Origin: Cytophagales bacterium
GTDB lineage: Bacteria; Bacteroidota; Bacteroidia; Cytophagales; UBA9547
Assembly: GCA_044349205.1 (NCBI GenBank)
Contig: JBIKRJ010000002.1
Coordinates: 1 to 40,716, forward strand
DNA: 40,716 nt
Reading direction: 5' to 3'
The position numbers were made by a program, and so were the translations under genes. Positions 1 to 15,750 of the stretch are shown here, one piece after another. The notes beneath the pieces were generated by a model. The model worked only from the letters and a program-made list of their open reading frames with translations. It was not told the DNA's origin and did not search any database. The first letter of the stretch is position 1. Each line of letters opens with the position of its first letter.

Positions 1-7
1 CAAAAAG

Positions 8-191: not shown

Positions 192-224
192 AAGGATGAC
201 TTCGCTTCAAGCGAAGGCATCCTT
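192..224 (-). terminator. Strong interrupted hairpin about 80 nt downstream of the chitinase stop. Possible transcription terminator or RNA-stabilising stem-loop.
   Basis: AAGGATG-a-CTTCGC ttcaa GCGAAG-g-CATCCTT gives 7+6 bp arms with one mismatched position and a 5 nt loop. There is no immediate U-tract on the minus-strand transcript, so the terminator call is tentative. Confidence 0.35.
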
Positions 225-305
225 TGGTAGATTTTAGAAACATAGTCTTCAAAATAGAAGCAGATCAATTGTTCTTCGCCACCAACCTGTCACTCTTAAC
301 ACTGC

Positions 306-1667
306 TTACCTCACGACTAGGCTTTTGGTATAAATAGCGCTTTCTGAATACAGTCTAATGATGAAATAACCAGGTGATAAGTCGGAAGTATTTAACTCGA
401 TTTGGTTCGAGTGATGCATAGATACTTTTACTACTTGACCAACTGTGTTTACTAATTCAGCTTTGTCAATTTTCCTGAAATGAGTCACTTCAACCACATC
501 TTTAGCAGGGTTCGGAAAAATGGTTGTGTTTTGAGTGTCGATTTCTTGAACACTCGGTGTGTTGGTCGTTACACTAAGAGAGCAGTTGCTATAATTTTGC
601 ATCACGTTTGTGGAAGATTCATAGCATAAAGTGGAATAATCGCTCGTGTTTTCCAACGAAATCTGACTACTATTGAATCCTAAAATATTCAAATAGTATT
701 TATAGAGTTCGGAACGCAAAACCACCTTGTCAGTAAAAAGAGTAGTGGAGGTTGACCTGCATTCAAGCGCCCCATTGATGATGTTATTTGTATGGGCAAA
801 ACCCTTTTTATACATTTTACTGGAAGTGTAGCCAGCACTTGGTGTCCATAAGTCGTGCATCACTTGATGACAAGAGGGTTTTGGGCATTGCGGCATCATC
901 CAAAACCAAATGCCAGATTTGAATGCCAAAACGCCATTTCGTTGAATCGAATCGGGGTCGTTCAGAAGTACATTTTTATCGTTAAATAAGAATTTGCTCA
1001 ACTGCCCATAGTTGAAATTATATGACAATTGCATGGGGCCTCTTCCATAATAGCCTACCGAAGGATTCGCAGGAAATTCGGAACTGGCCACCGCATAAGC
1101 TCCTGCCGCATTTGTACTGTTATATCCCACTTCATACACAAAATATAAGCCCCACTTAGCGTAGTCACCACTTTGGCCACCACCCACTGGCATTGTCCAA
1201 CCGCCAGTCGATTCTTTTGAAATATTGGCCAAGAAAGCAGCCAATTCCCTTTTGTTGTTATAGTCAGAACTAGTGTTTGCAAAATCTTCAAAATCTATGG
1301 TGACAATAGTTTCTGGAATAGAACTTGAATACCACGATGCTCCAACATCGGAATAATTATAGGTGGTGTTAGTAGATTTCCTTGTAATGGTAATCAATTG
1401 GCTAGATAGACCATTTTTCACTCTAATCTTGACTAGATAATCCGACATTTCGGCAGCGGCTTGTTTTAGATTATTAAAAGAATAAAAATCTGTTTTATAG
1501 CCTTGTGGATGCCCTCCTGCTATACCCGCACGTTTTGGGAATAGCGCATTCCATTGGTTTGCGTTCAGTAAACTATCAAGATTGGTGTTTTGCGAATAGC
1601 CGTTAAGGGCATAAAGCATGGCGATTATCGTAAGTATTATGCTGATTTTAGGTTGCTGTTTGTTCAT
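306..1667 (-). CDS. Secreted glycoside hydrolase family 19 (class I/II-type) chitinase with a C-terminal T9SS sorting domain
   Basis: N-terminal signal peptide (MNKQQPKISIILTIIAMLYALNGYSQ). GH19 signature blocks FLANISKESTGGW and YYGRGPMQLSYNFNYGQ. The C-terminal ~80 aa (TTIFPNPAKDVVEV...IRLYSESAIYTKSLVVR) resembles the Por/T9SS C-terminal domain. Confidence 0.85.
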   Translation of the reverse strand: MNKQQPKISIILTIIAMLYALNGYSQNTNLDSLLNANQWNALFPKRAGIAGGHPQGYKTDFYSFNNLKQAAAEMSDYLVKIRVKNGLSSQLITITRKSTNTTYNYSDVGASWYSSSIPETIVTIDFEDFANTSSDYNNKRELAAFLANISKESTGGWTMPVGGGQSGDYAKWGLYFVYEVGYNSTNAAGAYAVASSEFPANPSVGYYGRGPMQLSYNFNYGQLSKFLFNDKNVLLNDPDSIQRNGVLAFKSGIWFWMMPQCPKPSCHQVMHDLWTPSAGYTSSKMYKKGFAHTNNIINGALECRSTSTTLFTDKVVLRSELYKYYLNILGFNSSQISLENTSDYSTLCYESSTNVMQNYSNCSLSVTTNTPSVQEIDTQNTTIFPNPAKDVVEVTHFRKIDKAELVNTVGQVVKVSMHHSNQIELNTSDLSPGYFIIRLYSESAIYTKSLVVR

Positions 1668-1720
1668 GTTCTAATTTTTTGATAAGTGGTAATTGTTGTT
1701 TCGTTTTATATTCTGAAGTT

Positions 1721-2236
1721 TTACTCCTGAAACCACGAGGCATACATCACATAGTTATTTGCGATTCGCTCATTGATGTCTTTGAAATGTTCTGGACTTA
1801 ATTCTTTCACTTTTTTTGCAGGAATACCAGCATAAATAGTACCACTTTCAATACGTGTGTTTTCTAAAACAACTGCACCAGCTGCTATTAGGCTATTTTT
1901 TTCAACATATACATTGTCCATCAAAATAGCACCCATTCCAATCAGGACATTATCTTCAACTGTACAACCATGTACAATCGCTCGATGACCAATAGAAACA
2001 TTATTACCAATATTCAAAGGGTGTTTCAGATAAGTACAATGTAAAATAGCTCCATCTTGAACATTTACATTATTTCCAATTTTAATATAATGAACATCGC
2101 CTCGCACAACACTTTGAAACCAAAATGTACAATTATCGCCAGCTTGCACATCACCTAAAATGGTAGCATTCTCTGCAAAAAAACAATTTTCACCAAATCG
2201 GGGGTGAATGCCTTTTACTGGTTTGATTAATGCCAT
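1721..2236 (-). CDS. Gamma-class carbonic anhydrase-like / left-handed beta-helix (hexapeptide repeat) protein of the YrdA/PaaY-like family
   Basis: 171 aa. Hexapeptide-repeat pattern throughout (ATILGDV, NVNVQDGAILH, IGNNVSIGHRAIVHG, VLIGMGAILMD). Typical N-terminus: IHPRFGENCFFAENATILGDV. The start lies 4 nt after the stop of the upstream CHAT gene. Confidence 0.85.
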   Translation of the reverse strand: MALIKPVKGIHPRFGENCFFAENATILGDVQAGDNCTFWFQSVVRGDVHYIKIGNNVNVQDGAILHCTYLKHPLNIGNNVSIGHRAIVHGCTVEDNVLIGMGAILMDNVYVEKNSLIAAGAVVLENTRIESGTIYAGIPAKKVKELSPEHFKDINERIANNYVMYASWFQE

Positions 2237-2240
2237 GTTT

Positions 2241-3135
2241 CTAATTCACTCCAATCATAATAAAAGAACCCCAATAGACTGACTCGGGAAAATCGGCTTT
2301 GATTTCTTTTTTGGCTTCGATGAAAGACCTGCGCTTGTCGCCGGTACGAAGCCATTTTTCATAGAAAATGAGCATTAGTTTTTCGGTCACTTCATCATCT
2401 ACTTTGAAAAGGCTCATTACGACATTGTCGGCACCTGCCACCAAGAACGAACGCTGCAAACCGGCCACCCCCTCGCCTATTTGTACATCGCCAAGGCCTG
2501 TTTCACAGGCACTTAAAGTCACCAGTTCGGTATTGTCCAAGTTCATGTTCATGGCTTCGTAGGCGGTAAGAATACCTGTTTGGCCGTTTACATTGCCCGC
2601 AGTAAAATGGTTATCCAAGAGTTCGCCAGCACCTGTAAGCAATATGCCCGAACGGAACAGCGGGTTTAGTTCGTTTTTCTTCAACATCGAATTTTCGTCT
2701 TGCGCCATAGAACTAGTTTGGTCGGGTTGGAAATAACCATGTGTGGCCACATGCAAAATACGAGGACCTTCCATGTTTTTCAGTTTGTCTTCGTCGGCGT
2801 GATGATCGGTTAGCAGTACATTTTGCCACTTGTTGGCAGTAAACAAATCGGCAATACCTTTGGCTTCTTGTTCGGCGCCTTGCAGCTGGGGAATGGTACG
2901 GGCAGAAACTTTTGAATTTTCCAAATAGAACTGCGGATTACCCACAAGCGAAATGTTGTTGGAAAGGTTTTTCTTGATTTTTTTCTTCTCATAAATACGA
3001 GCCAAGGCCAAATCTTTGGTATTGCTCACAAGTAAAATGTCGTATTTGTCTATCAGGTATTTATCGTTGTCGTCTTGCAGGGTTTCTACATTCAGTTGGT
3101 TATACACTCCCTCGCTAGAAAGGTAAATGGTGTGA
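2241..3135 (-). other. CHAT domain of paralog 1, approximate boundaries. Putative catalytic His codon at 2739-2741 and Cys codon at 2505-2507.
   Basis: The region runs from IYLSSEGVYNQLNVETL to the C-terminus. The His of ATHGYF and the Cys of LSACETG were mapped by hand and checked to be in frame with the 6473 start. Confidence 0.7.
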
Positions 3136-6100
3136 ATACCTTTCAGTTGCGATTCGATTGGTTTCCAAAAAACATCGTACGACAGGTGGTCTTCATTTTT
3201 GTATTTAATGGTGTTTCGGTAGTATTTGATGTATTTTTTCTCAAGCATATTACCGTTTGGCAGCAGCACAAAATCGGGGTTGCCGCTGGTTTGGTCGGTG
3301 ACTATTAGTGCAGCATATATGATGGAGTCAGTAAAACCATTGGCATAGAATCGAAAACGCACTATTTCGATGGCGGCTTCCTTTTCTTTCAAGGATTTGC
3401 GCACATCTTTCCAATGGTACACCCTGTTTTCAAAGCTTTTGGAAAATTCCTCTGAAGTGGCACTCAGTTCTTTTTCCAAATCATTTATTTCTTTTTCCAA
3501 TTTTATCGGATCTACATTGGCCACTTTTGATTGTTCTTGCGAATAGGAAATTATTTGGGTGTACAATTCTTTTTTATCGTTCCATACATTGAACTTGCCA
3601 ATGAGTTCGGGGTTGCCACTACTCAATATCCTTTGACGCACCTTGATAGAATTGCTCAAGAGCAAGGCCTTGGTAGCCAAGACATAATCGTACATTTGGC
3701 CTATCAAATCGGGGTGATTGTCTTTCATTTTCAGAGCCAACGAATTGAAAAACTCAAAGTCGCCTTTAATAGTCTCCCAGTATTTGCTCTTCTCGCCGAA
3801 ACTCAATACAGGGAAATATTTTAATATAAAATCGTGATAACCTTGCGTGGCCACGTTCAAGGTAGTCAGTGAGTTTTTGTAATCGCCTTTGGCATAATAG
3901 GTTTTGGCAATACGGCTAAGGGTTTTCACATAATCGGGGTGTTGCGAACTGAATTTGCTTTTGTATAGACTAAGCGCATCTTCGTATTTATTTAAAGCTT
4001 GCGCATATTTTCGTTGTTTTCGATACAGGTCACCCCACATAAGGTCAAGTTCGGGAGTATAGACATTGTTTTTGCCCAGTTTGGTTTCCCAATATTTTTC
4101 AGATGCTGCAATGAGGCTATCGGCAGAGGCTAGCTGGTTGGTTTCCATTTGAAAGAAGGCCAACGTTTTCAGTCCGTTGATGTAAGAGGGGTTGTCGGAA
4201 CCAAGCTGTTTTTTCAGAATGGAATTGGATTCGAAAAGCATTTTGCGCGAATCGTTGGCATCACTGCCTAGATTGTAGCGTATGATGGCCAAATCGACTA
4301 GGGCATCGGCCAAATTGATATTGTCATATCCTTGAATGCGTGTAATAATATCTATTTGTTTTTTGCACTCAGCCTCGGCTTTTTGATAATCGCCAAAGGC
4401 TGAATGAAGCTTACGAAGAGTCTTCAAACTTTCAGCATAGCGTAAAGTAGTATCGCCAGATTGTTTGATACTAAGTTTTACGGCACGATTCAACTGGGCT
4501 TCGGCTTGGCCGTAATCACCTGTGAGATAATGCTTCAAGCCCAAAAGATTGAGCGGTTTAATGAGTTCGGCGGCTTCTTTGCTTTTCAATTTTTCTTTTT
4601 CGGCAATAGATTGTTTCAAAATTCTTTCAGCTTCGCGGTATTTACCAATTTGCAAATAGTAGGCGCCCAAATCGTCGATACTTGAATTTTCGGCCATGTT
4701 ATACCCCTTCTTAGCATTATGATTCACGATTTTTTCGGCAGATCGTAAGTTCTTCAGGGACTTGTCGAAATACCCAAAAGTGCTGTAGCCTTCGGCTATA
4801 TTTTGGTAGGCAAGGGCATAGGAAGGTGAGTAATCGTCGATGTTTCCCGCATCCAACACTGATTCGGCTTGTTCAAACATTTGTTTGGCTTGCGTGTATT
4901 TACCCAATTCCAGGTACACATTCACCAAATCGCCCAATATCAAAGCATATTTGGGACTTTTGTCTGTAAAATTTATTTTGGCTTGTTTTTCAGCCATTTG
5001 CAGGTATTCAGACGATTTCACAAAGTTTTCCCACAAGGCATACAGTACTCCAATGTTGTCTAAATACTGTACATATTTTTCATGTCTTGGTGACATTTCC
5101 TTGCTTACCACTCCCATAAAACTTTGCAGGTAAATCTCTTCGGCTTTCTTTAGGTTGTTGGTTTTGCGCAAGTAGAAGTCGGCAAGGTCAAGCTTGCGGC
5201 GGTGATAGGCTGGAGTTTGATCGCCGTAAAGTTCCTTCATTACCTTAAGTATGTTCATGAGGGTGTCTTCGGCGGGCTTTAACCAACCTTCGCGCACATC
5301 CAACAACACGTGTATTTCTTGGGCTTTGATACGAGCGGATGAATACAATGGAATATACAAACCATTGCTCATCAGTTCATTAAGACGCTCTTTTACAAAA
5401 TTATGGTCAAATTTTTTGGCATTTATCCATTCTTCCAGCAATTCCTTGTTGGCAAAAAACACATTTTCTTTGTCGTAGTAAAAACTGGTTTTGCGCTCGT
5501 ATGTCGCCAAACTTTTGTGGTACATCATGGAAAAATTGTCTTTAATCGCCCTACTGTATATCATGCGATCGAAGCCCTGGAAGTAGTAAATATCCAGCCT
5601 ATTTTTCACGGCACTCAAAGCCGCTACATTGTAGGCCGTAGCAGTACGCAGGTTTCCTTTCGATTCTTCTATATTGGCAATAGACTGTAAATTCTGCATC
5701 TTGACGGGGTTGCTGCTGCCTAAGTTTTTGTCAACCCATTGATTGCTGAGCTTGTACAAGGAATCAGCTGCGCCATTAAAACCCCTTTGTAGGGCGATGT
5801 CGGCTTTGGTGCTGGTAGCCCATGCGTAGGCCTGTTTTCTTGACTTAAAATCGGACGAATTCACCTTTATATTTTTGGTTCTGCCTTTAGCATCGGTTCC
5901 TTTTTCCGATCGCACTATACGGTTTTCCAGTTTTGGCAACCAATTGGTTACGATGCTATCGGCTTTGTTCAAATAGCCCATTTGCACATCGATTCTTGCC
6001 AAAAGCAAGGATTTGGCGGGCAGAAATCCCGCATTTTGTTCCTTCGATTTGTCGTAAATGGTCTTGGCTTGATTGAGCGACTCAAGACTTTTTCGGTAAT

Positions 6101-6473
6101 GCCCGTATTGATAATAGGTTTCGGCAATGCCCAAATAGGTTTCGTAAGCCACCCTACCCGTATCGTTGTACACCCTTTTTATTACACCTGTGGCTTCTTT
6201 CAAGCTTTTTTCATATTGTATGTGCCGCCCCATGTGCAAAAGCAATTTGCCTTGGTTCAAGTAAGCAGTAGCGCCAAAGCCAAAATCTTTCTTGCCGCTT
6301 CTCAGCATTTTTCGAATGAATGCCTCGTTTTTCTTGTATGCCTTTTTGATTTTGCCTGCTTGGAACTTCCGCTCTATCTTGTCAAGTTTCCGCTGCATTT
6401 TTTTCTGGGCAAAAACAGAAAATCCTCCAACTAAAAAGAAAGTCAGAAATATGAAAAAAAATGTTCTATTCAT
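2241..6473 (-). CDS. Secreted TPR-repeat protein with a C-terminal CHAT (caspase-like) peptidase domain, paralog 1 (1410 aa)
   Basis: Signal peptide MNRTFFFIFLTFFLVGGFSVFAQ. Long run of TPR-like repeats (repeated Y..A/G...Y...G.Y.KA patterns). The C-terminus carries the CHAT His/Cys dyad motifs ILHVATHGYF and LVTLSACETGLGDVQIGEGVAGLQRSF, and ends YWGSFIMIGVN. Confidence 0.85.
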   Translation of the reverse strand: MNRTFFFIFLTFFLVGGFSVFAQKKMQRKLDKIERKFQAGKIKKAYKKNEAFIRKMLRSGKKDFGFGATAYLNQGKLLLHMGRHIQYEKSLKEATGVIKRVYNDTGRVAYETYLGIAETYYQYGHYRKSLESLNQAKTIYDKSKEQNAGFLPAKSLLLARIDVQMGYLNKADSIVTNWLPKLENRIVRSEKGTDAKGRTKNIKVNSSDFKSRKQAYAWATSTKADIALQRGFNGAADSLYKLSNQWVDKNLGSSNPVKMQNLQSIANIEESKGNLRTATAYNVAALSAVKNRLDIYYFQGFDRMIYSRAIKDNFSMMYHKSLATYERKTSFYYDKENVFFANKELLEEWINAKKFDHNFVKERLNELMSNGLYIPLYSSARIKAQEIHVLLDVREGWLKPAEDTLMNILKVMKELYGDQTPAYHRRKLDLADFYLRKTNNLKKAEEIYLQSFMGVVSKEMSPRHEKYVQYLDNIGVLYALWENFVKSSEYLQMAEKQAKINFTDKSPKYALILGDLVNVYLELGKYTQAKQMFEQAESVLDAGNIDDYSPSYALAYQNIAEGYSTFGYFDKSLKNLRSAEKIVNHNAKKGYNMAENSSIDDLGAYYLQIGKYREAERILKQSIAEKEKLKSKEAAELIKPLNLLGLKHYLTGDYGQAEAQLNRAVKLSIKQSGDTTLRYAESLKTLRKLHSAFGDYQKAEAECKKQIDIITRIQGYDNINLADALVDLAIIRYNLGSDANDSRKMLFESNSILKKQLGSDNPSYINGLKTLAFFQMETNQLASADSLIAASEKYWETKLGKNNVYTPELDLMWGDLYRKQRKYAQALNKYEDALSLYKSKFSSQHPDYVKTLSRIAKTYYAKGDYKNSLTTLNVATQGYHDFILKYFPVLSFGEKSKYWETIKGDFEFFNSLALKMKDNHPDLIGQMYDYVLATKALLLSNSIKVRQRILSSGNPELIGKFNVWNDKKELYTQIISYSQEQSKVANVDPIKLEKEINDLEKELSATSEEFSKSFENRVYHWKDVRKSLKEKEAAIEIVRFRFYANGFTDSIIYAALIVTDQTSGNPDFVLLPNGNMLEKKYIKYYRNTIKYKNEDHLSYDVFWKPIESQLKGIHTIYLSSEGVYNQLNVETLQDDNDKYLIDKYDILLVSNTKDLALARIYEKKKIKKNLSNNISLVGNPQFYLENSKVSARTIPQLQGAEQEAKGIADLFTANKWQNVLLTDHHADEDKLKNMEGPRILHVATHGYFQPDQTSSMAQDENSMLKKNELNPLFRSGILLTGAGELLDNHFTAGNVNGQTGILTAYEAMNMNLDNTELVTLSACETGLGDVQIGEGVAGLQRSFLVAGADNVVMSLFKVDDEVTEKLMLIFYEKWLRTGDKRRSFIEAKKEIKADFPESVYWGSFIMIGVN

Positions 6474-6525
6474 TTTTTAAAATGGTATTCAGATTAAAGT
6501 TCCAAGATAATGGTCGTATGGACAT

Positions 6526-6554
6526 AAAACAAAAAAGCAAGCTGTAGCCCGCTT
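6526..6554 (-). terminator. Rho-independent-type terminator or attenuator between the lipoprotein gene and CHAT paralog 1
   Basis: The minus-strand RNA AAGCGGGC uaca GCUUGCUU forms an 8 bp stem (two G-U pairs) and is followed by UUUUGUUUU. On the plus strand the same positions would be A-C mismatches, so the structure is specific to the minus strand. Confidence 0.5.
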
Positions 6555-6580
6555 TTTTGAATACATAAATTTTCTCCTAT

Positions 6581-7684
6581 TTATTGCTTGAAAAGAATAA
6601 ATATTGTCCCTACAGATTCTATATCTGCTGGATCGCTAGTATTTTCAAGCTTCATTTCCATTTGTACAATTTGTTGAAATTTTGAAACGGTTGCCCGGTA
6701 GGTCTCGGTAACAAGTTGAGGATTCAAACCTGCAGAATCAGCATCATAAGACGAGGCATAGATAAGAAACTGGTTTGAAGTACCAGCTACACTTTCAACC
6801 GCCCAGTTGCCATACGAATAACCAGGGTCTCCATAGGCAGGATTCGCACCCACACGCCACCTGCCATCGCTGCTAATGGCTAGGGTACTAGAATCCTTCT
6901 CGAATATCCAATTTCCTAAAAGTATGCTCGCACTGTTATCCAATTGTGCCTGTCCGCTGAATTTATCTTTGCTCAAATGGTAGGCGTTCCAACCCATCGT
7001 TACTTTATCTGGCTCTCTATCGTTGTTGAAATCGTATATACCACTAACCACCATTCGGGTAGAACTGGCCTTGACAATTTCCCAGATTCTGTTTGGTGTA
7101 CGAAGTGCACTACTATCAAAGTCAAAAGCAATGTACTTAGTTGAATCATCGATTCCCCAAGTACCCCAAGTCCAAATCTTGTCCTTGAACTTGTATTGCC
7201 AATAATAACCAGAGGCATCGCAGTTGAACATAATGGCTGTCTTGTAACCATTGTCGGCAATTTGCTGACTTGTGAAGGACTTCCCGTTCACAGTCATATC
7301 TGCCAAATACCAGCCAAACCATGACCTAACGGTATCTTGTTGCATTCTAAGCTGCCCTGCACCTAAGCCAAGAAGGTTGTCTAAACCGGTTGTTGAACCT
7401 CCGTTCAAACGTTGTTGCTGTTGGTTCTCAACAGTTACGGATGATCCACTCGGAGTAACGACCTGCACAGGAACAGATAAAGGAATGCCTGAGCCACTTT
7501 CTCTGTTTGTGCTAGTACGATTACTCAAATCGGGTGGGGTTGGTTTTGCTTCGCCAGAAGTACCCCCCCCGCCACTGGTTGCAGGGGTTGGATTGTCTGA
7601 ACTCTTTTTGCTACAGGTAGTAGTTAAAACCAAAAGAAAAATAGCAAAAAATGTAAATTTGAAATAGACGAAAGAATTTTTCAT
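6581..7684 (-). CDS. Lipoprotein of unknown function with lipocalin-like (G-x-W) modules. Its N-terminal module is paralogous to that of the 20964-22349 protein.
   Basis: The preferred start is MKNSF (ATG at 7684) rather than the ORF-track start at 7729. Lipoprotein signal FAIFLLVLTTTCSKKSSD followed by a Gly/Pro/Ser linker. Motifs shared with the FISUMP protein are listed in the findings. Confidence 0.6.
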   Translation of the reverse strand: MKNSFVYFKFTFFAIFLLVLTTTCSKKSSDNPTPATSGGGGTSGEAKPTPPDLSNRTSTNRESGSGIPLSVPVQVVTPSGSSVTVENQQQQRLNGGSTTGLDNLLGLGAGQLRMQQDTVRSWFGWYLADMTVNGKSFTSQQIADNGYKTAIMFNCDASGYYWQYKFKDKIWTWGTWGIDDSTKYIAFDFDSSALRTPNRIWEIVKASSTRMVVSGIYDFNNDREPDKVTMGWNAYHLSKDKFSGQAQLDNSASILLGNWIFEKDSSTLAISSDGRWRVGANPAYGDPGYSYGNWAVESVAGTSNQFLIYASSYDADSAGLNPQLVTETYRATVSKFQQIVQMEMKLENTSDPADIESVGTIFILFKQ

Positions 7685-7706
7685 AGTATTGTTTAAGGAA
7701 CTTAAA

Positions 7707-7737
7707 CAAACATAGTAAAATACTTGCAAAAATCAAA
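7707..7737 (-). promoter_or_regulatory. Candidate Bacteroidota sigma-A-type promoter (TTTG-N19-TATGTTTG) for the lipoprotein/CHAT-1 arm
   Basis: The minus strand reads TTTG (7737-7734), a 19 nt spacer, then TATGTTTG (7714-7707). This matches the TAnnTTTG -7 consensus and lies 22 nt upstream of the ATG at 7684. Chance matches are plausible in AT-rich DNA. Confidence 0.35.
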
Positions 7738-7817
7738 AACGAACAAAGTAGGCTTAATGCAAACAATTCATTAAATTGTGAATATTTTTACGCCCACTTT
7801 TTTAGCCACACTAAAGC

Positions 7818-10178
7818 ATGTCAATAGTTGATTTTTGGGGGGTTATGTCAAAAATGAGTCGCTTCATGTTGCTTATTTTGTGCGCTATTTCTTTTTTTGT
7901 TGTTCTCCCTTTTCACACCCAAGCACAAAATGCAAAGGAAGAAGCCGTGTACGAGCTCTTTGATGTATCGCTTGAAGAACTGCTTAACATTGGGATGGTA
8001 TCGGCGTCTAAAAGAAAACAGAGCCTTTCCGATGCACCTGCTACTGCGTACGTGTTTAGCCAAGAACAAATACGGGCAAGAGGATATACCAACCTTTCGG
8101 AACTATTGGAAGATGTGCCCGAAATAGAAGTACAACGCAATTCTAACCCCGAATTTCGAAACATCTTTACCTTCAGGGGCATATCGGGCAATGAGAAGTT
8201 TTTGATATTGCTGAACGGGGTACGCATTACCCCTGCTACAGGCGACAGCTACACGCTGGGTAGTAATTTTTCGTTGAACAATGCCAAAAGGGTGGAAGTA
8301 ATTTTAGGCCCAGCTTCGGCTTTGTACGGGGTCGATGCGTTTAGCGGAATCGTCAATATCATTACCCGTTCTCAAGAAACAAATGAATACCGAGAGGTGG
8401 AAACCAGCAGTTCGTATGGCATGTACAACAGCAGCAACAATTCATTTACAGCTGGAACAAAAGTAGGCAAACTGGCTTTTTCTATTTCGGGCAACATGTA
8501 CGCTTCTGACGAACCCAACTACCAAAAAACAAACCCCGAACAGTTTAAATGGTACAACAACTACACCGAAAAAAATGGCATCATCGTAGAATCGCCCTTT
8601 TACCAACGCATCAATACGTTGCAAGCCTTTCAATACAGTGCGGGTGGGAGCTACAATGGCAACCCGCTTTCGGTACAGTTTGGTATGCCCACCCGCTCGC
8701 ATTTTTTCAATGCCGATTTGAGCTATTCCAATTTCAATATTGGCTATGTACGCCATTACGAAAGCCACAGTTCGGCCTACGGTATCGACCCTCGGTTTAC
8801 CCTGTACGATGCCTCAAGTTTTGTGGGACAAACCCAAGAAGTGGTGTATGGAAAACATAGTTTTACTTCTTTCAATAAAAAATGGGGCTTGCAAAGTAGT
8901 TTTATGCAAAGCAATTATGAAACAAACCCCGAAAGTCATTTTGCCAATGCCTCTTCAAGATGGCAACGAGGCTACATCTACTCGTTTGGACAGAGCTCGC
9001 GTGTAGAGGAACAGTTCAACTATGAGTTTTCGAGCCGTGTGTCGCTAGTAGCAGGAGTTTTGTACGAAAACCTGTCGGCCTTGCCACGCACTGGCCTATC
9101 TCAAAAGCCTTTTGACAAAAACCAACCCGGACAATTACAAGAAATTTACTTCATAGGTGCAGCAGGTTACAAACCCATAGCAGTTAGCGACAAGGCTGTA
9201 TTCAACGATTCATTGGCTATAAAACAAAATTTTTACAATTTGAAGTACCAAAACTATGGCGGTTTTGCACAGTTTCAGTTTAACCCGTGGAAAATATGGG
9301 AAATAACCTTGGGTATGCGCTACGATTACAACACCCGTTTTGGTGGGAGTTTCAACCCAAGAGCTGGACTCGTTTTCTTACCCAACAAAAAGTTCAGGTT
9401 TAAAGTGTTATACGGCGAAGCCTACCTTGCTCCTTCGCCCCAAAAGGCCTACCAACAAGCGGGAGCTTTTTATTCCTACGACCCCAACAGCAGGGTGCTT
9501 GTAGCCGACTATTTTCGAGTACCCAATGCCAACCTAAAGCCCGAAAAACTGCGTGAGCTGGAAGCCAATACTTCTTACATGTTTACAAGCAACTTTTCCA
9601 TAGGCATCAATGGATTTTACACGCGTGTGGAAAACTTGATTGATTTTTTTGGCACCGCTACCAACAATTTGGCACCTTCCAACATCAAAGCATCTAAACT
9701 AGAAACCTCATTGAACAGGGGCACATCTGAAATGTACGGCGGAACTTTTAAAGCAAACTTTATGCACAAAATTTCGAACATCAACTTCAGTTGGTTTGCC
9801 TCCTACAGCTACATAGATGGAAACATAAACAATGGCCCTCTGCTACTTACCGCACAAAATACGGCCAAAGGTGGAGTAGAAATTACCACAAAACGTTGGG
9901 CAATTACACCAAAGCTGCTATACCGTGACCAATCGCTCAGCTCCCAACAAGAACCTATCAGCAATGCCTATTTTACCAACGATGCCTACACTGTTTTGCA
10001 TCTTTATGCCCACTATTTGTTAATAAACAAGGCGCAATATAAATTTCGCTTATCGGCAAAAGTAAACAACCTGACCAACACCAAGTATTACAATGTTTTT
10101 GCCGGAAACGAAGAAGGAATGGGCTTCACTCCACAAGACCCTGTAAGAGCCAGCTTGGGAATAAGCTTAGAACTTTGA
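7818..10178 (+). CDS. TonB-dependent outer-membrane receptor (plug plus 22-strand barrel type), not SusC-like
   Basis: Signal peptide (MSRFMLLILCAISFFVVLPFHTQAQ; the true start may be the ATG at 7845 or 7854). Plug-domain motifs: LEELLNIGMVSASKRKQSLSDAPATAYVFSQEQI, NLSELLEDVPEIEV, VEVILGPASALYGVDAFSGIVNIIT. The remainder is rich in beta-strand, Tyr and Gly, including YGEAYLAPSP and NLTNTKYYN. Confidence 0.8.
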   Translation: MSIVDFWGVMSKMSRFMLLILCAISFFVVLPFHTQAQNAKEEAVYELFDVSLEELLNIGMVSASKRKQSLSDAPATAYVFSQEQIRARGYTNLSELLEDVPEIEVQRNSNPEFRNIFTFRGISGNEKFLILLNGVRITPATGDSYTLGSNFSLNNAKRVEVILGPASALYGVDAFSGIVNIITRSQETNEYREVETSSSYGMYNSSNNSFTAGTKVGKLAFSISGNMYASDEPNYQKTNPEQFKWYNNYTEKNGIIVESPFYQRINTLQAFQYSAGGSYNGNPLSVQFGMPTRSHFFNADLSYSNFNIGYVRHYESHSSAYGIDPRFTLYDASSFVGQTQEVVYGKHSFTSFNKKWGLQSSFMQSNYETNPESHFANASSRWQRGYIYSFGQSSRVEEQFNYEFSSRVSLVAGVLYENLSALPRTGLSQKPFDKNQPGQLQEIYFIGAAGYKPIAVSDKAVFNDSLAIKQNFYNLKYQNYGGFAQFQFNPWKIWEITLGMRYDYNTRFGGSFNPRAGLVFLPNKKFRFKVLYGEAYLAPSPQKAYQQAGAFYSYDPNSRVLVADYFRVPNANLKPEKLRELEANTSYMFTSNFSIGINGFYTRVENLIDFFGTATNNLAPSNIKASKLETSLNRGTSEMYGGTFKANFMHKISNINFSWFASYSYIDGNINNGPLLLTAQNTAKGGVEITTKRWAITPKLLYRDQSLSSQQEPISNAYFTNDAYTVLHLYAHYLLINKAQYKFRLSAKVNNLTNTKYYNVFAGNEEGMGFTPQDPVRASLGISLEL

Positions 10179-10183
10179 AAAAT

Positions 10184-11068
10184 ATGAGCAAATACAACAA
10201 GTATATTTCAATTGTTTTGCCTATCAGTTTCGTGCTGGTCTTTTCTGCTTGCAGAAAAGAAGAGAAAATTTTGTATAAAAATGAAAAAACCACAATAGAG
10301 GGTACTTGGTATGTAGATAAAATCAAATTTTATGACCTACTAAATGGCACTTCGGAAGTCACCAATTTTTATTTTGACTCCAAACCGCTTGTCAAACAAA
10401 ATAGTTTCGATAACATGGATGCCCAATTTACCCTAAACAACGATGGGACATATTCTTCTGTAAGCCATCGATTGGGAATATATTTCGCACTGATTGGAAA
10501 CCAAAACCCTGCTACAAATCCCAATGGTAACAAGGGATTGTGGCAATTGATAGACGATGGCAAAAAAATTTACTTCGACAAAGGAATTTATGAATTTGAC
10601 GGCAACTCTCCGCGTTATTACAACATTGTGATACTAAACGAGGACTCACTACTATTCGAAACTTCTGAACCAAAAGCTGTGTACGATTGGGCCTATTTGT
10701 ATGGCACTGTAAATATGCGATTAGACTTTTACCCTCTTATTTCGAATGCATTTTGCAGTACAGGCGACGATACATACGGCGGCGCTGAATTTGCGCAGGC
10801 TTTTGGGCCTTTCCTTGGCTATAAAAATGCCACTCTCGACACGGACATCACACTCAATCCTTTTGGAATTGGACTTAGAAGAGGCCTCGTAAAAGCTTTT
10901 GAAGATATCTACAATCCTGTTGCATTGCCCAAATTCGACAGCTGCTACAAAGCTAATTTGACACCCTATTACAATTCTGGCTATGCAAATGGCCAAAATC
11001 TAAAAAACAACGTCAAATCACGCTTTTCAAAAATCACCTTCTACTTTTCACGCAAGCCAAATCCATAG
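10184..11068 (+). CDS. Lipoprotein of unknown function with a lipocalin-like domain
   Basis: Lipoprotein signal MSKYNKYISIVLPISFVLVFSAC. IEGTWYVDKIKF, NNDGTY, GLWQLIDDGKKIYF and YNIVILNEDSLLFE resemble the bacterial lipocalin-like pattern. The ATG at 10184 lies 5 nt after the TBDR stop. The ORF-track TTG at 10175 would overlap the stop as TTGA. Confidence 0.6.
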   Translation: MSKYNKYISIVLPISFVLVFSACRKEEKILYKNEKTTIEGTWYVDKIKFYDLLNGTSEVTNFYFDSKPLVKQNSFDNMDAQFTLNNDGTYSSVSHRLGIYFALIGNQNPATNPNGNKGLWQLIDDGKKIYFDKGIYEFDGNSPRYYNIVILNEDSLLFETSEPKAVYDWAYLYGTVNMRLDFYPLISNAFCSTGDDTYGGAEFAQAFGPFLGYKNATLDTDITLNPFGIGLRRGLVKAFEDIYNPVALPKFDSCYKANLTPYYNSGYANGQNLKNNVKSRFSKITFYFSRKPNP

Positions 11069-11070
11069 AC

Positions 11071-13971
11071 ATGAAATTGCGTGTAGTCATAATGCTTTGG
11101 GGAATGATAGCGAGGTGTAGTTTAGCACAAACTACTGAAGCTATACGTACTACTGCCGATTCTTTGGCTGCTACTGGGAAAAAGCATTTCCTGAAAGGAG
11201 ACTACATCAAATCGAAAGAAGATTATTTCAAGTGTTTTGCTCTGCAAAAAAAGGTTTTGAACGAAAAATCGCTTGAATACGAAGAAACCCTTTTTCTGAT
11301 TGCTGAATTGTTTCATGAAGTGGGCAATGTCACGGTGGCAGAAAAAGTTTTGCAAAACGACCTGGAGCTCATAAGCCGACATTGGGGGAAACATTCTTCA
11401 CAACATGCCCGCAGTATCGAATTGCAAGGCAGGATATGCATGGACAAAGACGAATACGAGGCTGCCGAGAACTTCCTGAAATCAGCTCACGACATTTACG
11501 AAAAGGAAAATCCAAAAAGTCTGGCGATGGCAAGCAATTTGGTGTACCAAGGGCAACTTTACTGCAACCAAGGATACTACACGGCAGCTGAAGCCTTGTT
11601 TCGCAAAGCACGATTCATTTATCACAAACATCCCGACGTGTCTTCCGAAAGTCGTTCAATGCTTTTGTTGGGTATGGGCGAATTGTACACCAAACTACAC
11701 AACTACAAAAAAGCAGTCGACATTTTCAACGAACTTATAAGCATAAACCAAAAAACCTATGGCAACGAGCACCCCTACATAGCCAAAGCCGATTTTTATT
11801 TGGGAATTATTTTCTTGGAAACTGGATATGGCCACAATGCCAAACCTCATGTTTTTGCTGCAAATGAATCATTCTCGCACTATTACGGACCACGACACCC
11901 CAAAACACTTCTAGCCAAAAGTTTGCTTGCCAAATATTACTCTTTTACGCTACAGCATGCCAAGGCCGACAGCCTGTACAAACTTGTACTCGACCAACTG
12001 GAATTTCATTCGGAAGAAAAACACATAATCAATAGTAAAATTGAAGCAGAATTGGCCATGCACCATTATCGCTTGGGAAAGTATGACGAAGCTATCGACC
12101 TACACAGAAGAAGCTTGGATGTAATCAAAGAATACTTGGAAAACTCCACCCCCTTCTACATACAAACCATCAATGACCTAAGTTTCTTGTATTGGGCTAG
12201 TGGGAAAAACTATTTGGCTGAAAACTATTTCGAAAGAAGCACGACTAATTACATTAACCAGTTCAACCGCTATTTTGCTTTTTTGAGCGAACAAGAAAAA
12301 AGCTTTTTCTATCACGACATTCGGTTGTTTTTCGACAAATACAATTCATACATCATTTCGCACTTGAAAGACAACCCCAACCTGACAAAAAACATGTACA
12401 ACAACCAATTGGCCACAAAAGCATTGCTTTTTCATACTAGCCAGGGAATACGGAAACAAGTGATGCAAACAAACGACCATAAACTGCTTGGAAAGCACAA
12501 AAATTGGGTGCGCTTGAAAGAACATTTATCTAAGTTGTACAAATTGGTTGAGGAAGATGAATCGGAAGAAAACGAACAATTGTTAGACTCACTTGAAGAA
12601 AAAGCCAATTCGCTTGAAAAAGAAATCTCTTTGCGCATTGAACTGAACAAGACAAAAGGAGTAAATGCATTGCAGGAATACAAATGGGACGACATCCAAA
12701 AATCGCTGGCAGCCGACGAGGCAAGCGTGGAAATCATAAGGGTGCAAGAATTTGAACCCGATTCAGGAGGCAAATTCAATCACGATATTTATTATGCCGC
12801 CCTTATCATAACCAAAAACACCAAAAAAAGGCCTGCCCTAGTGGTGCTAAAAAACGGGAAAGATTTAGAAGGGAAATTGCTACGCTATTACCGAAATGCT
12901 ATTCAGCACAATATGCCCGACGAATTGTCTTATCTGCATTTTTGGGAACCCATTAAGGCTTCGAAACACCTACAAAACATCAACAAAATATACATTTCCT
13001 GCGATGGGGTTTTCAACCAAATCAACATCAACACCCTCATACATCCCGAAACCCATAAAACTGTTTTTGAGGAACAAGACATTCATTTACTAAGCAATAC
13101 CAAAGACATACTGCGTCTGAAAACGAATACTGAAAAAACAAATGGGAAAACTATCCTAATGGGCTATCCCGATTATTACCATTCGCAAAAAACAGGTCTT
13201 ACAGCCCAAAAAAGCAAAGATGCCGAAACCCACCACGTGCTGCACAGAACAAGGGGGCATCACGATTTTCAAGACATCATGCGTGGCGGAAAAATTGTGG
13301 ACTTGCCCGGCACCAAAATTGAAATAGAAGAAGTTTCCAAAATATTTTCTGCCAACAACGAGCCACACGATGTTTTCATGGGAAAAGAGGCCGACGAAGC
13401 CAATTTGAAAACAATTGAAAACCCTTCCATCTTGCATATAGCCACCCACGGCTATTTTATGCCCGATACCGAAGAGGAAGACGATAGCTTGCTTTCGGAT
13501 ACCATGGTGTTTGAATCTTTCAAAGAAAATCCACTCATGCGTAGCGGTATTATGCTGATGGGCGCCGGAAATGCATACACCGATGAAACATTGGAACAAG
13601 AATTGAGTGCCGTTAAAAACTCTGAAAAATTTGAGGACGGCATTCTAACGGCTTACGAAGCCTTAAACATTAACCTTTCGGGCACAGACCTTGTCATACT
13701 TTCGGCCTGCGAAACCGGCTTGGGCGAAGTGAAAAATGGTGAAGGCGTATATGGCTTGCAAAGAGCCCTGCAAACGGCTGGCGCCAAATCTGTTATCATG
13801 AGTTTGTGGAAAGTAAGTGACCAAGCCACCAAAGAACTGATGGTAAACTTTTACAGTGAATGGGTAAAAAGTCACGACAAACGTAAGGCTTTTCGTGAAG
13901 CCCAAGCCAAACTAAAAATCGATTTTCCCGAACCTATCTATTGGGGCGCATTTGTAATGATAGGTGAATAA
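11071..13971 (+). CDS. Secreted TPR-repeat protein with a C-terminal CHAT (caspase-like) peptidase domain, paralog 2 (966 aa)
   Basis: Signal peptide MKLRVVIMLWGMIARCSLAQ. TPR-like repeats follow. The central module is shared with paralog 1 (ATKALLF, WDDIQKSLAADEASVEIIRV, YYAALIIT, LRYYRNAIQH, IYISCDGVFNQININTL). CHAT dyad motifs ILHIATHGYF and LVILSACETGLGEVKNGEGVYGLQRAL; the protein ends YWGAFVMIGE. Confidence 0.85.
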   Translation: MKLRVVIMLWGMIARCSLAQTTEAIRTTADSLAATGKKHFLKGDYIKSKEDYFKCFALQKKVLNEKSLEYEETLFLIAELFHEVGNVTVAEKVLQNDLELISRHWGKHSSQHARSIELQGRICMDKDEYEAAENFLKSAHDIYEKENPKSLAMASNLVYQGQLYCNQGYYTAAEALFRKARFIYHKHPDVSSESRSMLLLGMGELYTKLHNYKKAVDIFNELISINQKTYGNEHPYIAKADFYLGIIFLETGYGHNAKPHVFAANESFSHYYGPRHPKTLLAKSLLAKYYSFTLQHAKADSLYKLVLDQLEFHSEEKHIINSKIEAELAMHHYRLGKYDEAIDLHRRSLDVIKEYLENSTPFYIQTINDLSFLYWASGKNYLAENYFERSTTNYINQFNRYFAFLSEQEKSFFYHDIRLFFDKYNSYIISHLKDNPNLTKNMYNNQLATKALLFHTSQGIRKQVMQTNDHKLLGKHKNWVRLKEHLSKLYKLVEEDESEENEQLLDSLEEKANSLEKEISLRIELNKTKGVNALQEYKWDDIQKSLAADEASVEIIRVQEFEPDSGGKFNHDIYYAALIITKNTKKRPALVVLKNGKDLEGKLLRYYRNAIQHNMPDELSYLHFWEPIKASKHLQNINKIYISCDGVFNQININTLIHPETHKTVFEEQDIHLLSNTKDILRLKTNTEKTNGKTILMGYPDYYHSQKTGLTAQKSKDAETHHVLHRTRGHHDFQDIMRGGKIVDLPGTKIEIEEVSKIFSANNEPHDVFMGKEADEANLKTIENPSILHIATHGYFMPDTEEEDDSLLSDTMVFESFKENPLMRSGIMLMGAGNAYTDETLEQELSAVKNSEKFEDGILTAYEALNINLSGTDLVILSACETGLGEVKNGEGVYGLQRALQTAGAKSVIMSLWKVSDQATKELMVNFYSEWVKSHDKRKAFREAQAKLKIDFPEPIYWGAFVMIGE
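12985..13968 (+). other. CHAT domain of paralog 2, approximate boundaries. Putative catalytic His codon at 13447-13449 and Cys codon at 13708-13710.
   Basis: Codons were mapped by hand and are in frame with the 11071 start. An acidic stretch, PDTEEEDDSLLSD, follows the His motif directly. Confidence 0.7.
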
Positions 13972-13977
13972 AACCCT

Positions 13978-14469
13978 TTGAATAACATCCCGTTGAACCC
14001 AATCAAAATCATCATCGTGTCTTTGTTCCTTTTATCGGGAATACTTAGTTATTTGTTGTATCAGCAAAAATCGGACAGAATTTCGTCCCAAACAGGTAAA
14101 AAAGAGATGGGCTGGAATGCTGTAGCGGTCAAAAAAATGTGGGTAATAGCTCAGGGCGACACCCTAATTTTTTCAAAAAAAGACGGTATTTGGAAGCGAA
14201 ACACACAGTTCGACGGAATGGGAGAGGCCATCCAAATCTTGAATTATCTTTCAACCATGCAGTTGGAAAATGTACAGTTCCCCAATTTCAATTCCGAAAT
14301 CGAACTTCACACCTTTGACAAAGCAGGCAATCTGGTGAACAAAATAGAAATTGGACAAGGATCAAAAGCAGGAAATTGCTATGCCAGAATTAACAACGGT
14401 CAAGTTGTGGGCCTATCCAACCTACAAAACAAGACCTCATTGCGAAACTTGCTGAAAATTTCTCTTTGA
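13978..14469 (+). CDS. Small N-terminally membrane-anchored protein of unknown function, tightly coupled to CHAT paralog 2
   Basis: A TTG start lies 6 nt after the CHAT-2 stop. The N-terminus encodes one hydrophobic helix (IKIIIVSLFLLSGILSYLLY), which supports the non-ATG start. The remainder is soluble and loosely DUF4340-like (KKDGIWKR...AIQILNYLSTMQLENV); that resemblance is a tentative recollection only. Confidence 0.5.
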   Translation: MNNIPLNPIKIIIVSLFLLSGILSYLLYQQKSDRISSQTGKKEMGWNAVAVKKMWVIAQGDTLIFSKKDGIWKRNTQFDGMGEAIQILNYLSTMQLENVQFPNFNSEIELHTFDKAGNLVNKIEIGQGSKAGNCYARINNGQVVGLSNLQNKTSLRNLLKISL

Positions 14470-14527
14470 GGCTTCTATACAAGTCCAATCACTCGTTTAT
14501 TTGAGTAGGATATTTTTTTTTATTGCA

Positions 14528-14535
14528 TAACTTTG
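14528..14535 (+). promoter_or_regulatory. Candidate -7 promoter box (TAACTTTG) upstream of dnaN
   Basis: Matches TAnnTTTG 38 nt upstream of the dnaN ATG. The nearest upstream TTTG (14500-14503) gives a 24 nt spacer, which is longer than the ideal. Confidence 0.3.
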
Positions 14536-14573
14536 TCAGTCAATCTATACACCAAAAAAAACAATAAAATCCG

Positions 14574-15698
14574 ATGAGATTCATCATATCTTCTTCCTCA
14601 CTTTTAAAACAGCTCTCCAGCATAAGTGGCGTTATCGCTTCAAACCCCATTGTCCCCATTCTGGAGAATTTTTTGTTTGAAGTAAAAGAATCGACACTCA
14701 CGATTACGGCTTCCGATATGCAAACCTCCATGATTACAGAAATGGAAGTAGAATCTAAAAAATCGGGTAGCATCTGCGTGCCAGCCAAAATACTCATCGA
14801 CACATTAAAAAACCTTCCTGAACAACCGCTTACCTTTACAATCGACGAAGAAACATACAGTATTGAAATAAGTTCTGACAGAGGTAAATACAAACTTTCG
14901 GGCGAAAACGCCACCGACTTTCCAAAAGCACCCGTGATTAGCGGCGGCGATGCCTTGGAAATTCCTTCGGATATTTTGTTGAGGGCTATCAATATGACCC
15001 TTTTCGCAGCAAGCAACGACGAATTGCGCCCTGCCATGACTGGTGTTTACATTAGCATGAACGACACCAACGTAACTTTCGTGGCTACCGATGGCCATCG
15101 CCTTGTACGTTATCGCCGTGTTGACATTGCTTCAGATGCCAACACTTCAATATTAATTCCAAAAAAGGCACTCACTTTACTGAAATCATCCCTGACGTCT
15201 GACAACACTTTAGTAGTGTTGGAATTCAACACTTCAAATGCCTATTTCAGTTTTGGCAATACCAAAATGATATGCAGACTTTTGGACGAACGTTTCCCCG
15301 ATTACGAAAACGCTATTCCGGTCAACAACCCAAACAAACTAAACATAAACCGAAACGAATTTTTGAACTCATTGAAAATCACTTCGATATATGCCAACAA
15401 AACCACTCACCAAGTACGCTTGAAAATGGCAGGAAGTGAACTACATATTTCGGCCGAAGATATCGATTTTAGCAACGAAGCTAACGAAAGGCTTGCTTGC
15501 GATTTTGTAGGCGAAGACATGGAAATTGGGTTCAACGCTAAGTTTTTGTTGGAAGTGCTCAATACGATGGATGCCCACGATGTGACGGTAAACCTTTCTG
15601 CGCCCAACCGCGCGGGAGTTATTACTCCAACCACACAAAATACCAACGAAGATTTGCTAATGCTTGTGATGCCTGTAATGCTAAACAGCTATTCGTAA
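14574..15698 (+). CDS. dnaN: DNA polymerase III beta subunit (sliding clamp)
   Basis: 374 aa. Typical N-terminus MRFIISSSSLLKQL. Also RPAMTGVY, ATDGHRLV, FPDYENAIP, NAKFLLEVL and MLVMPVML. Confidence 0.95.
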   Translation: MRFIISSSSLLKQLSSISGVIASNPIVPILENFLFEVKESTLTITASDMQTSMITEMEVESKKSGSICVPAKILIDTLKNLPEQPLTFTIDEETYSIEISSDRGKYKLSGENATDFPKAPVISGGDALEIPSDILLRAINMTLFAASNDELRPAMTGVYISMNDTNVTFVATDGHRLVRYRRVDIASDANTSILIPKKALTLLKSSLTSDNTLVVLEFNTSNAYFSFGNTKMICRLLDERFPDYENAIPVNNPNKLNINRNEFLNSLKITSIYANKTTHQVRLKMAGSELHISAEDIDFSNEANERLACDFVGEDMEIGFNAKFLLEVLNTMDAHDVTVNLSAPNRAGVITPTTQNTNEDLLMLVMPVMLNSYS

Positions 15699-15720
15699 TT
15701 AATTCCCGAAAGCATAAAAA

Positions 15721-15750
15721 AAGGGCTTGAATGAGAATTTTCAAGCCCTT
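15721..15750. terminator. Bidirectional intrinsic terminator between the convergent genes dnaN and GT2
   Basis: Perfect 11 bp stem AAGGGCTTGAA / TTCAAGCCCTT with the 8 nt loop tgagaatt. It is flanked by an A-tract (15715-15720) and a T-rich tract (15751-15759). The right arm contains the GT2 stop codon (15741-15743). Confidence 0.65.

Follow-up and report, generated by a model that had tools for sequence, protein, structure and literature searches.

A conserved operon encoding a TonB-dependent receptor, a lipoprotein and a predicted periplasmic TPR-CHAT protease in Cytophagales

The stretch of DNA analyzed here, referred to as the window, comprises 40,716 nucleotides (contig JBIKRJ010000002.1 of the GenBank assembly GCA_044349205.1, positions 1–40,716 of the forward strand) from a Cytophagales bacterium. 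Its plus strand carries three consecutive genes encoding a TonB-dependent receptor (TBDR), a lipoprotein (LipoR) and a protein composed of tetratricopeptide repeats (TPRs) and a CHAT protease domain (CHAT_R), followed by a gene for a small protein of 163 aa; genes for a second lipoprotein (LipoL) and a longer TPR-CHAT protein (CHAT_L) are located on the minus strand (Table 1). The operon that combines the TBDR, the lipoprotein and the predicted periplasmic TPR-CHAT protein, hereafter called the cassette, is conserved, previously undescribed and, among the loci sampled, specific to Cytophagales. Outside this core lie lineage-specific neighbors, namely the left arm (LipoL and CHAT_L) and the gene for the small protein.

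A first-pass annotation, made from the letters of the DNA alone, had placed six open reading frames (ORFs) here and described them as a mirror-like envelope module, in which two exported TPR-CHAT paralogs bracket a TonB-dependent barrel, two lipocalin-like lipoproteins and a small anchored protein. All six ORFs were borne out at the coordinates then proposed, and re-measurement of the right-arm junctions again gave 5, 2 and 6 nt, with the proviso that the first one becomes a 4-nt overlap if LipoR starts at the TTG codon.

Table 1. Genes and features of the locus (coordinates refer to the window)
Feature	Position	Strand	Remarks
CHAT_L, long-form TPR-CHAT protein, 1410 aa, putatively exported	2241–6473	minus	Pfam TPR_12 x7 + CHAT
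Terminator-like hairpin, 13 pairs then T-run	6530–6559	minus	between LipoL and CHAT_L
LipoL, lipoprotein, 367 aa	6581–7684	minus	Cys after h-region
Divergent intergenic region LipoL/TBDR, 133 nt, presumed cassette promoter region	7685–7817		read from sequence
TBDR, 786 aa, cassette gene 1	7818–10178	plus	signal peptide, Plug, barrel
LipoR, lipoprotein, 294–297 aa, cassette gene 2	10175 or 10184–11068	plus	start ATG 10184 or TTG 10175; lipobox VFSA-C
CHAT_R, TPR-CHAT protein, 966 aa, cassette gene 3	11071–13971	plus	Pfam CHAT, dyad H793/C880
Small protein, 163 aa	13978–14469	plus	start uncertain, TTG 13978 or TTG 13993; N-terminal transmembrane anchor or uncleaved signal

Domains and predicted localization of the cassette proteins

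CHAT_R is a predicted caspase-like protease with an intact His/Cys dyad. Both TPR-CHAT proteins confidently match the Pfam CHAT family (PF12770, cut-off 24 bits; CHAT_R: 202.2 bits, E=2e-59; CHAT_L: 182.7 bits, E=1e-53) and both retain the dyad, in agreement with the first-pass annotation. H793 (in the motif ATHG) and C880 (LSACETG) of CHAT_R are invariant in the alignment of 6 family members, and the CHAT-domain profile pairs them with H585 and C627 of the TPR-CHAT chain of Sb-craspase (7x8a_D in the PDB), i.e. with the residues named as the catalytic dyad of that protein (PMC9729208). Since the craspase chains are reached by this profile only weakly (E ~0.07), the assignment of CHAT_R to the CHAT family rests on the strong Pfam match. 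The sequence search of the PDB with the full-length CHAT_R returned only TPR matches from kinesin light chain. Within the family the N-terminal TPR region diverges far faster than the CHAT domain, which retains 40–53% identity where the TPR region is barely alignable.

Export signals were called with a hydrophobicity heuristic combined with conservation in orthologs. Each of the six proteins of the locus begins with a hydrophobic segment that is unmatched by any internal stretch of the same protein, which upholds the Sec-type signal peptides previously proposed for both CHAT proteins. The signal peptide is kept in six CHAT_R orthologs (L007, L009, L010, L012, L090 and L173), and persists where these orthologs exhibit only 33–45% identity (examples: MRYLTIILCTLLTLKTGYS-Q, MKNIFVISLVILSVTFGNA-Q and MHIRTLVILLLNFTMAFG-N). 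CHAT_R possesses neither a transmembrane helix nor a lipobox, and its C-terminus is formed by the CHAT domain, with no sorting domain of the type IX secretion system (T9SS), unlike the GH19 chitinase encoded elsewhere in the window. Because the Sec signal is accompanied by neither a membrane anchor nor a T9SS tail, CHAT_R should reside in the periplasm as a soluble protein.

The first gene of the cassette encodes a typical two-domain TBDR (Pfam Plug: 6e-21, TonB_dep_Rec barrel: 2e-26), and the AlphaFold2 (AF2) model of its product (pLDDT 86.8) is a plugged 22-strand barrel. The Foldseek search with this model retrieved BtuB, Cir, PhuR, PqqU, FrpB and others with approximately equal scores (E ~1e-34, 12–18% identity), and because all classes of TonB-dependent transporters (TBDTs) match about equally, the substrate class is unreadable from the model. 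The N-terminus exhibits a TonB-box-like motif, LEELLNIGMVSASK; the sequence GMVSASK, which follows the conserved LEELLNI, is kept across the family and falls into the disordered N-terminal segment of the model. Two more specific identities were rejected. The heme-uptake assignment was dropped because the NCBIfam heme-receptor match scores only 134 bits against the cut-off of 317 bits. A FecA-type transducer is not supported either, since the domain search identified the Plug and barrel only, with no N-terminal STN signaling domain, and the window encodes neither sigma nor anti-sigma factors.

LipoR, the predicted outer-membrane lipoprotein of the cassette, belongs to a fast-evolving and tiny family (of 1.84 billion representative proteins only 13 match it at E<=1e-3), all orthologs of which exhibit the lipobox Cys and a subsequent GxW motif. 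In the lipoprotein export signal (LES) for the surface of Bacteroidota, K-(D/E)2 or Q-A-(D/E)2 comes after the lipobox Cys (PMC5080379). The mature N-terminus of LipoR, CRKEEK, resembles the K-(D/E)2 version, and a LES-like sequence after the lipidated Cys is found in about half of the orthologs. Among the relatives, CKKEEK, CKREEK and CNKEEG match the short signal, and CNKNEK, CKKDKKD, CETDEPP, CSDPLPE and CEKQDF match it only in part. The corresponding sequence of LipoL, CSKKSSD, is not LES-like. Neither LipoR and LipoL nor the 163-aa protein match any Pfam or NCBIfam profile, even at E<=5, and the lipocalin-like character formerly ascribed to the two lipoproteins is not upheld; a faint match to Lipocalin_8 (E=0.054) in one LipoR ortholog spans the signal-peptide region. 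The AF2 model of LipoR, based on a 4-sequence alignment, is unusable for fold comparison (pLDDT 35).

Conservation of the cassette and variation of its surroundings

TBDR homologs were gathered, one genome per species was scanned and the flanks were screened; both collection scans are samples of 600 stretches and not censuses. The TBDR-lipoprotein-TPR-CHAT cassette (positions 7818–13971 of the window) was identified in at least 8 Cytophagales lineages with the TBDR identity of 45–91%: the window itself, L007, a 72%-identity relative known from its gene table alone (without DNA), L009, L010, L012, L090 (Reichenbachiella ulvae) and L173 (a 103-kb metagenomic contig), of which the 72%-identity relative, L090 and L173 were found through context look-ups. 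All seven cassettes for which the DNA is available encode a TBDR, a lipoprotein of 260–300 aa and an exported TPR-CHAT protein, in that order, and all their junctions overlap or span no more than 7 nt. This order survives even where LipoR identity drops to 14–24% and CHAT identity to 33%. Thus, the adjacency of the three cassette genes is no product of chance, but the six-gene module of the first-pass annotation is not conserved as a unit.

A CHAT gene adjoins the TBDR gene only if the TBDR is at least ~45% identical to that of the window (L007, L009, L010, L012 and L014, all from Cytophagales); the ~70 loci in which the TBDR is more distant all lack such a neighbor. In the neighbor-joining tree of 88 CHAT C-terminal regions (without bootstrap) the TBDR-linked CHATs (7/7) fall into one clade; likewise, the TBDR tree, calculated in the same way, groups every linked TBDR into one clade, with a branching that matches the CHAT tree. 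As judged from these sequence comparisons, the cassette is a vertically co-inherited three-gene operon, and such co-inheritance is good evidence of functional coupling. Full-text literature searches retrieved no paper connecting CHAT domains to TBDRs.

Some members of the linked TBDR clade exhibit other gene arrangements. In Thermoflexibacter ruber (L088) and one metagenomic relative (L171) the lipoprotein and the CHAT protein are replaced by a protein without a signal peptide, comprising a phospholipase D (PLD)-like domain of the PLDc_2 family, an acidic linker and TPRs (L088:12342–13796, L171:9337–10878), which shows weak DrmC/SACK1-like matches. Divergently upstream of the TBDR gene of this PLD variant lies an ORF of 47–48 aa (L088:9725–9868, minus strand; L171:6723–6869, minus strand), the product of which has a Lys-rich leader ending with KLKGG and the core EDEEG(G)SNGGMPIRFP, and resembles a precursor of a GG-leader bacteriocin or of a ribosomally synthesized and post-translationally modified peptide (RiPP). 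A GG-leader peptide gene upstream of the TBDR was sought also in the CHAT-linked loci and none was found, i.e. it is restricted to the PLD variant. In L172 the TBDR gene is preceded by a gene for an extracytoplasmic function (ECF) sigma factor, and the TBDR locus of L174 has neither the PLD+TPR protein nor the GG-leader-like peptide gene nor the ECF sigma factor gene. In L090 the TPR-CHAT gene of the cassette is split around a poly-Tyr stretch into two overlapping ORFs (L090:13118–16247; 507 aa with the TPRs and 563 aa with the CHAT domain); the split may be genuine, or it may reflect a frameshift, decay to a pseudogene or a misassembly.

The left arm of the locus shows no comparable conservation. 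Among the flanks screened, LipoL homologs are found only in L007 and L014, and the 72%-identity relative encodes a protein of LipoL-like size in the corresponding position; the divergent arrangement of LipoL and the TBDR is restricted to close relatives, and the k-mer search with LipoL retrieved no cluster other than that of the window itself. Among the same flanks, L014 alone has CHAT_L in a syntenic position; the 72%-identity relative lacks it and has RuvB after the LipoL-sized gene. CHAT_L and CHAT_R are 33% identical and belong to separate subfamilies: the best relatives of CHAT_L are proteins of ~1400 aa from loci without a TBDR (L148, L107, L151 and L117), CHAT_R ranks beneath at least 18 such long-form proteins, and proteins of this type occur as lone genes in other genomes. 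The hairpin between LipoL and CHAT_L is the top-ranked terminator-like site within positions 1500–15500. Because LipoL and CHAT_L are poorly conserved, CHAT_L belongs to a separate subfamily and the hairpin splits the two genes, the six-gene 'mirror' is judged to be a lineage-specific juxtaposition; CHAT_L is probably an independent transcription unit beside the cassette. Nor do the two lipoproteins form a repeated element, as had been supposed, since LipoL and LipoR show no similarity in BLASTP or hhalign comparisons.

The 163-aa protein, which had been counted as a part of the module, was found only in the closest relative (L007, 5e-82) and is absent downstream of the CHAT gene in L009, L010, L012, L090 and L173; it is a lineage-specific accessory outside the conserved core. 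In LipoL, a low-complexity linker of ~90–100 aa, rich in G, S, T, P and Q (residues ~25–110), separates the lipidated Cys from a Trp-rich domain. A lipoprotein encoded downstream of the CHAT gene in L173 (8127–9125) resembles LipoL in its layout and matches it marginally (E=0.007 over 54 aa). The hairpin is flanked by A- and T-runs and may act as a bidirectional terminator. The scan for sigma-70 promoters, which is ill-suited to Bacteroidota, revealed sites no more numerous than in shuffled sequence.

Wider families and genomic setting

The first-pass annotation regarded exported TPR-CHAT proteins as unusual, on the premise that the characterized CHAT proteases are cytoplasmic. Both parts of this argument have to be abandoned. 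On the one hand, the TPR-CHAT sensor domain of the Myxococcus xanthus anti-sigma factor DdvA is periplasmic and has been resolved by cryo-electron microscopy (PMC11506125), which demonstrates that the function of CHAT domains is not confined to the cytoplasm. The other caspase-like CHAT proteases known (separase, craspase and HetF) are cytoplasmic switches. The search of the PDB with our CHAT-domain profile reached no DdvA chain. On the other hand, in a sample of 80 metagenomic CHAT relatives (31–50% identity in the CHAT domain, GC content 26–64%) 61 genes are full-length, and 57 of these 61 encode a typical signal peptide. Exported TPR-CHAT proteins are, according to these predictions, a large family. 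All-versus-all clustering of the ORFs flanking the 80 loci revealed no neighbor family present in more than 9 of them. Several metagenomic loci (L103, L107, L114 and L155) carry exported TPR-CHAT genes in tandem, as pairs or triplets, so that local clusters of such paralogs are common.

Distant relatives of the TBDR (25–35% identity) are encoded in Bacteroidota, several classes of Proteobacteria, Acidobacteriota, Calditrichota and Nitrospinota. In at least 29 of the ~70 loci of this kind the TBDR gene is directly adjoined by a gene for a YfiR/HmsC-like protein of the DUF4154 family, and in at least 24 by a gene for a sensor histidine kinase (HAMP/CHASE8/HisKA). The resulting DUF4154-TBDR-kinase triads fall within the loci L024–L087 (e.g. 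L030:9411–13912, L032:9752–15046 and L035:9327–13835). The literature search revealed no paper on such a triad, and none that names both DUF4154 and TonB-dependent receptors.

The window represents a chromosomal housekeeping region of a freshwater bacterium (GC content ~40%), which includes dnaN, purD, the operon of the caa3 oxidase and alternative complex III. The respiratory block on the minus strand (24258–40267) encodes SCO1/SenC, DUF420, subunits of the caa3-type cytochrome oxidase and CtaA/CtaB, as well as the ActD, NrfD-like, Fe-S and multiheme subunits of alternative complex III. No cas genes were seen among the genes of the window, and the PADLOC defense models gave zero matches for all six proteins of the locus; together with the housekeeping surroundings, this agrees with the earlier statement that cas and defense genes are absent. 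The GH19 chitinase gene (306–1667, minus strand) encodes a T9SS C-terminal sorting domain, from which it follows that the organism uses the T9SS; the CHAT proteins have no such tail. Two ORFs belong to no Pfam family (16554–17384, plus strand, 276 aa; 32007–33329, minus strand, 440 aa), the former being conserved in the close relative L007.

Candidate functions of the cassette

Two ideas of the first-pass annotation, substrate processing coupled to TonB-dependent transport and a protease-based envelope switch, stand as the two leading hypotheses, and nothing separates them decisively. All components of the cassette are members of known families, and there are precedents for either mechanism.

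Our tentative first choice, made by analogy, is that the TBDR imports a ligand, which is then bound and cleaved by the periplasmic TPR-CHAT protein, as in the FusA/FusC system. In such a pathway LipoR would sit with the TBDR on the cell surface and help to capture a peptide or a protein-borne ligand, the TBDR would carry the ligand into the periplasm at the expense of the energy supplied by TonB, the TPR array of CHAT_R would bind the imported ligand, and the CHAT domain would cleave it, thereby releasing a cargo or processing the ligand. The cassette would then be a Cytophagales analog of FusA/FusC and YddB/PqqL, with a clan-CD cysteine protease in place of the M16 metalloprotease. The Fus and YddB/PqqL systems set the precedent for a processing protease of the periplasm that is paired with a TBDT (PMC6793856, PMC6071955, PMC6042079): their genes for a TBDT (FusA in Fus) and for a Sec-exported, soluble periplasmic protease (FusC, an M16 enzyme) are clustered, as are the genes for the TBDR and the predicted periplasmic protease of the cassette, and the same logic, import first and cleavage next, is proposed for the cassette as well. 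The proteases are nevertheless different, since the TPR-CHAT protein belongs to clan CD and shows no M16 match. Fus systems moreover have a dedicated TonB homolog (FusB) and an ATP-binding cassette (ABC) exporter/importer (FusD), no counterparts of which are present at positions 1–16000 of the window or in the orthologous cassettes, and they are found in Proteobacteria; the cassette is found in Bacteroidota and has an additional lipoprotein. In this last respect it is similar to the BtuB-BtuG-type pairs of a TBDT and a surface lipoprotein in Bacteroidota (PMC6143338), in which a classic, non-SusC TBDT is likewise directly followed by a lipoprotein, but no resemblance of LipoR to BtuG or a Pfam family could be detected and its ligand binding is putative.

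Several observations argue against the import-and-cleavage pathway. Neither a substrate nor a regulator, TonB/ExbBD or an importer of the inner membrane is encoded in the cassette. In the literature cited, the characterized CHAT-type proteases (separase, craspase, HetF and, as proposed, DdvA) are tightly regulated switches of narrow specificity and not processors of nutrients (PMC11506125, PMC9729208). According to the fold search the TBDR model is not specifically FusA- or YddB-like, its best matches being BtuB, Cir and PhuR at 12–18% identity. None of the 80 loci of the sampled TPR-CHAT relatives has a TBDR or LipoR homolog nearby, an orphan CHAT protein (from L091) nests within the TBDR-linked CHAT clade, and the linked TBDR clade includes lineages with swapped partners (the PLD+TPR protein without a signal peptide, or the ECF sigma factor). 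Finally, we infer the surface exposure of LipoR from a short motif alone.

As the main alternative it is possible, if somewhat doubtful, that the TBDR gates a periplasmic protease switch: binding or transport of the ligand would alter the periplasmic side of the TBDR or bring in a signal molecule, and the TPR array would sense this and activate the CHAT domain, which would cut an endogenous target in the envelope (such as a regulator, the lipoprotein, an anchored protein like that of 163 aa, or the plug or TonB-box region) and thereby shift the envelope state or gene expression. DdvA, the only characterized periplasmic TPR-CHAT, is a sensor module for which signal-triggered autoproteolysis has been proposed, and it shares with CHAT_R the conserved His/Cys dyad in addition to the (in CHAT_R predicted) periplasmic location (PMC11506125). 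It differs in that it is anchored by a transmembrane helix, has a cytoplasmic zinc-binding anti-sigma domain and the ECF sigma factor DdvS as a partner, and controls an island with CRISPR and a cyclic-oligonucleotide-based anti-phage signaling system (CBASS); the CHAT proteins of our locus are predicted to be soluble, with a cleavable signal peptide only and no sigma partner, and CHAT_R is encoded behind a TBDR and a lipoprotein. The CHATs of craspase (Csx29) and separase, with which CHAT_R has in common the TPR + CHAT architecture and the aligned catalytic His and Cys, are also switch-like (PMC9729208). These enzymes are located in the cytoplasm, and RNA activates the bacterial one, which is in complex with gRAMP/Cas7-11, in contrast to CHAT_R, which has a signal peptide, no cas genes in its neighborhood and only marginal profile similarity to craspase. 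A switch gains some support from the YfiR-like/sensor-kinase triads, in which the distant relatives of the TBDR are found, and is consistent with the ECF sigma factor gene in L172 and with the fast divergence of the TPR region, as would be expected of a sensor. It is weakened by the lack of a conserved inner-membrane or cytoplasmic output partner, the CHAT-linked loci containing neither a sigma/anti-sigma pair nor a kinase, by the poor conservation of the anchored 163-aa protein and by the absence of the STN domain from the TBDR; moreover, the TBDR clades closest to the CHAT-linked one have no YfiR or histidine kinase neighbors.

A broader formulation, which we consider unlikely, combines the switch with defense: this specific TBDR would be coupled to a caspase-like protein of the periplasm that serves as a gate guard or as a switch of the envelope, with the TPR array monitoring passage or parasites (bacteriocins, phage proteins or signal peptides may be the items monitored) and the CHAT domain cleaving the intruder or a target in the envelope. 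Taken on its own, the guard function, in which the TPR-CHAT protein would cleave foreign proteins that enter via this TBDR, or trigger self-destruction of the envelope, appears improbable. Bacteriocins and phages enter cells through TBDRs, conflict systems often contain CHAT and TPR modules (PMC10907252, PMC9729208), and the contrast between the conserved CHAT domain and the barely alignable TPR region, as well as the bacteriocin-like gene beside the TBDR in the PLD variant, would fit a guard. Yet the PADLOC models are unmatched, the surroundings are of the housekeeping type with no defense island, immunity-like and toxin genes are absent, and the cassette is inherited vertically rather than being mobile.

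The relationship of the TBDR to the protease could also be reversed, with the TBDR needed to carry the TPR-CHAT protein or the lipoprotein across the outer membrane. PopC, a subtilisin-like protease, offers the model for such a route. In Myxococcus the secretion of PopC requires the TBDT Oar, which is the one experimental precedent, in the literature cited, for TBDT-dependent export of a protein (PMC6434023). The function of a TBDT is linked there to an extracytoplasmic protease, as is predicted for the cassette. We nevertheless regard export as highly improbable, since a TPR solenoid of ~105 kDa is an unlikely passenger of a plugged 22-strand barrel and since the exported TPR-CHAT relatives in the 80 sampled loci have no TBDR nearby.

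That the three cassette genes are neighbors merely by shared history is hardly credible, even though the CHAT family consists mostly of stand-alone genes, given that their order and tight junctions are kept in at least 8 lineages while the proteins fall to 14–45% identity, and that the TBDR and CHAT trees are congruent; the same explanation is largely true for the left arm, where CHAT_L is of another subfamily, has the terminator-like hairpin upstream and belongs to a lineage-specific arrangement, so that the six-gene mirror would be coincidental.

Whichever function applies, a whole clade of soluble exported TPR-CHAT proteins (as predicted) has been co-inherited with a dedicated transporter and a lipoprotein across the sampled Cytophagales, and the locus provides a concrete, genetically tractable entry to the targets of periplasmic CHAT proteases. 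If import and cleavage are confirmed, protease-associated import would reach past Proteobacteria and M16 proteases. If the cassette is instead a switch, it would represent a new kind of signaling from the outer membrane to the periplasm. In the case of a guard or switch wired to the TBDR, the orphan exported TPR-CHAT proteins of Bacteroidota would constitute a protease-based surveillance layer of the periplasm, and the wider TBDR family, to which the members of the YfiR-like/kinase triads belong, would serve as a general input device at the outer membrane for signaling in the periplasm.

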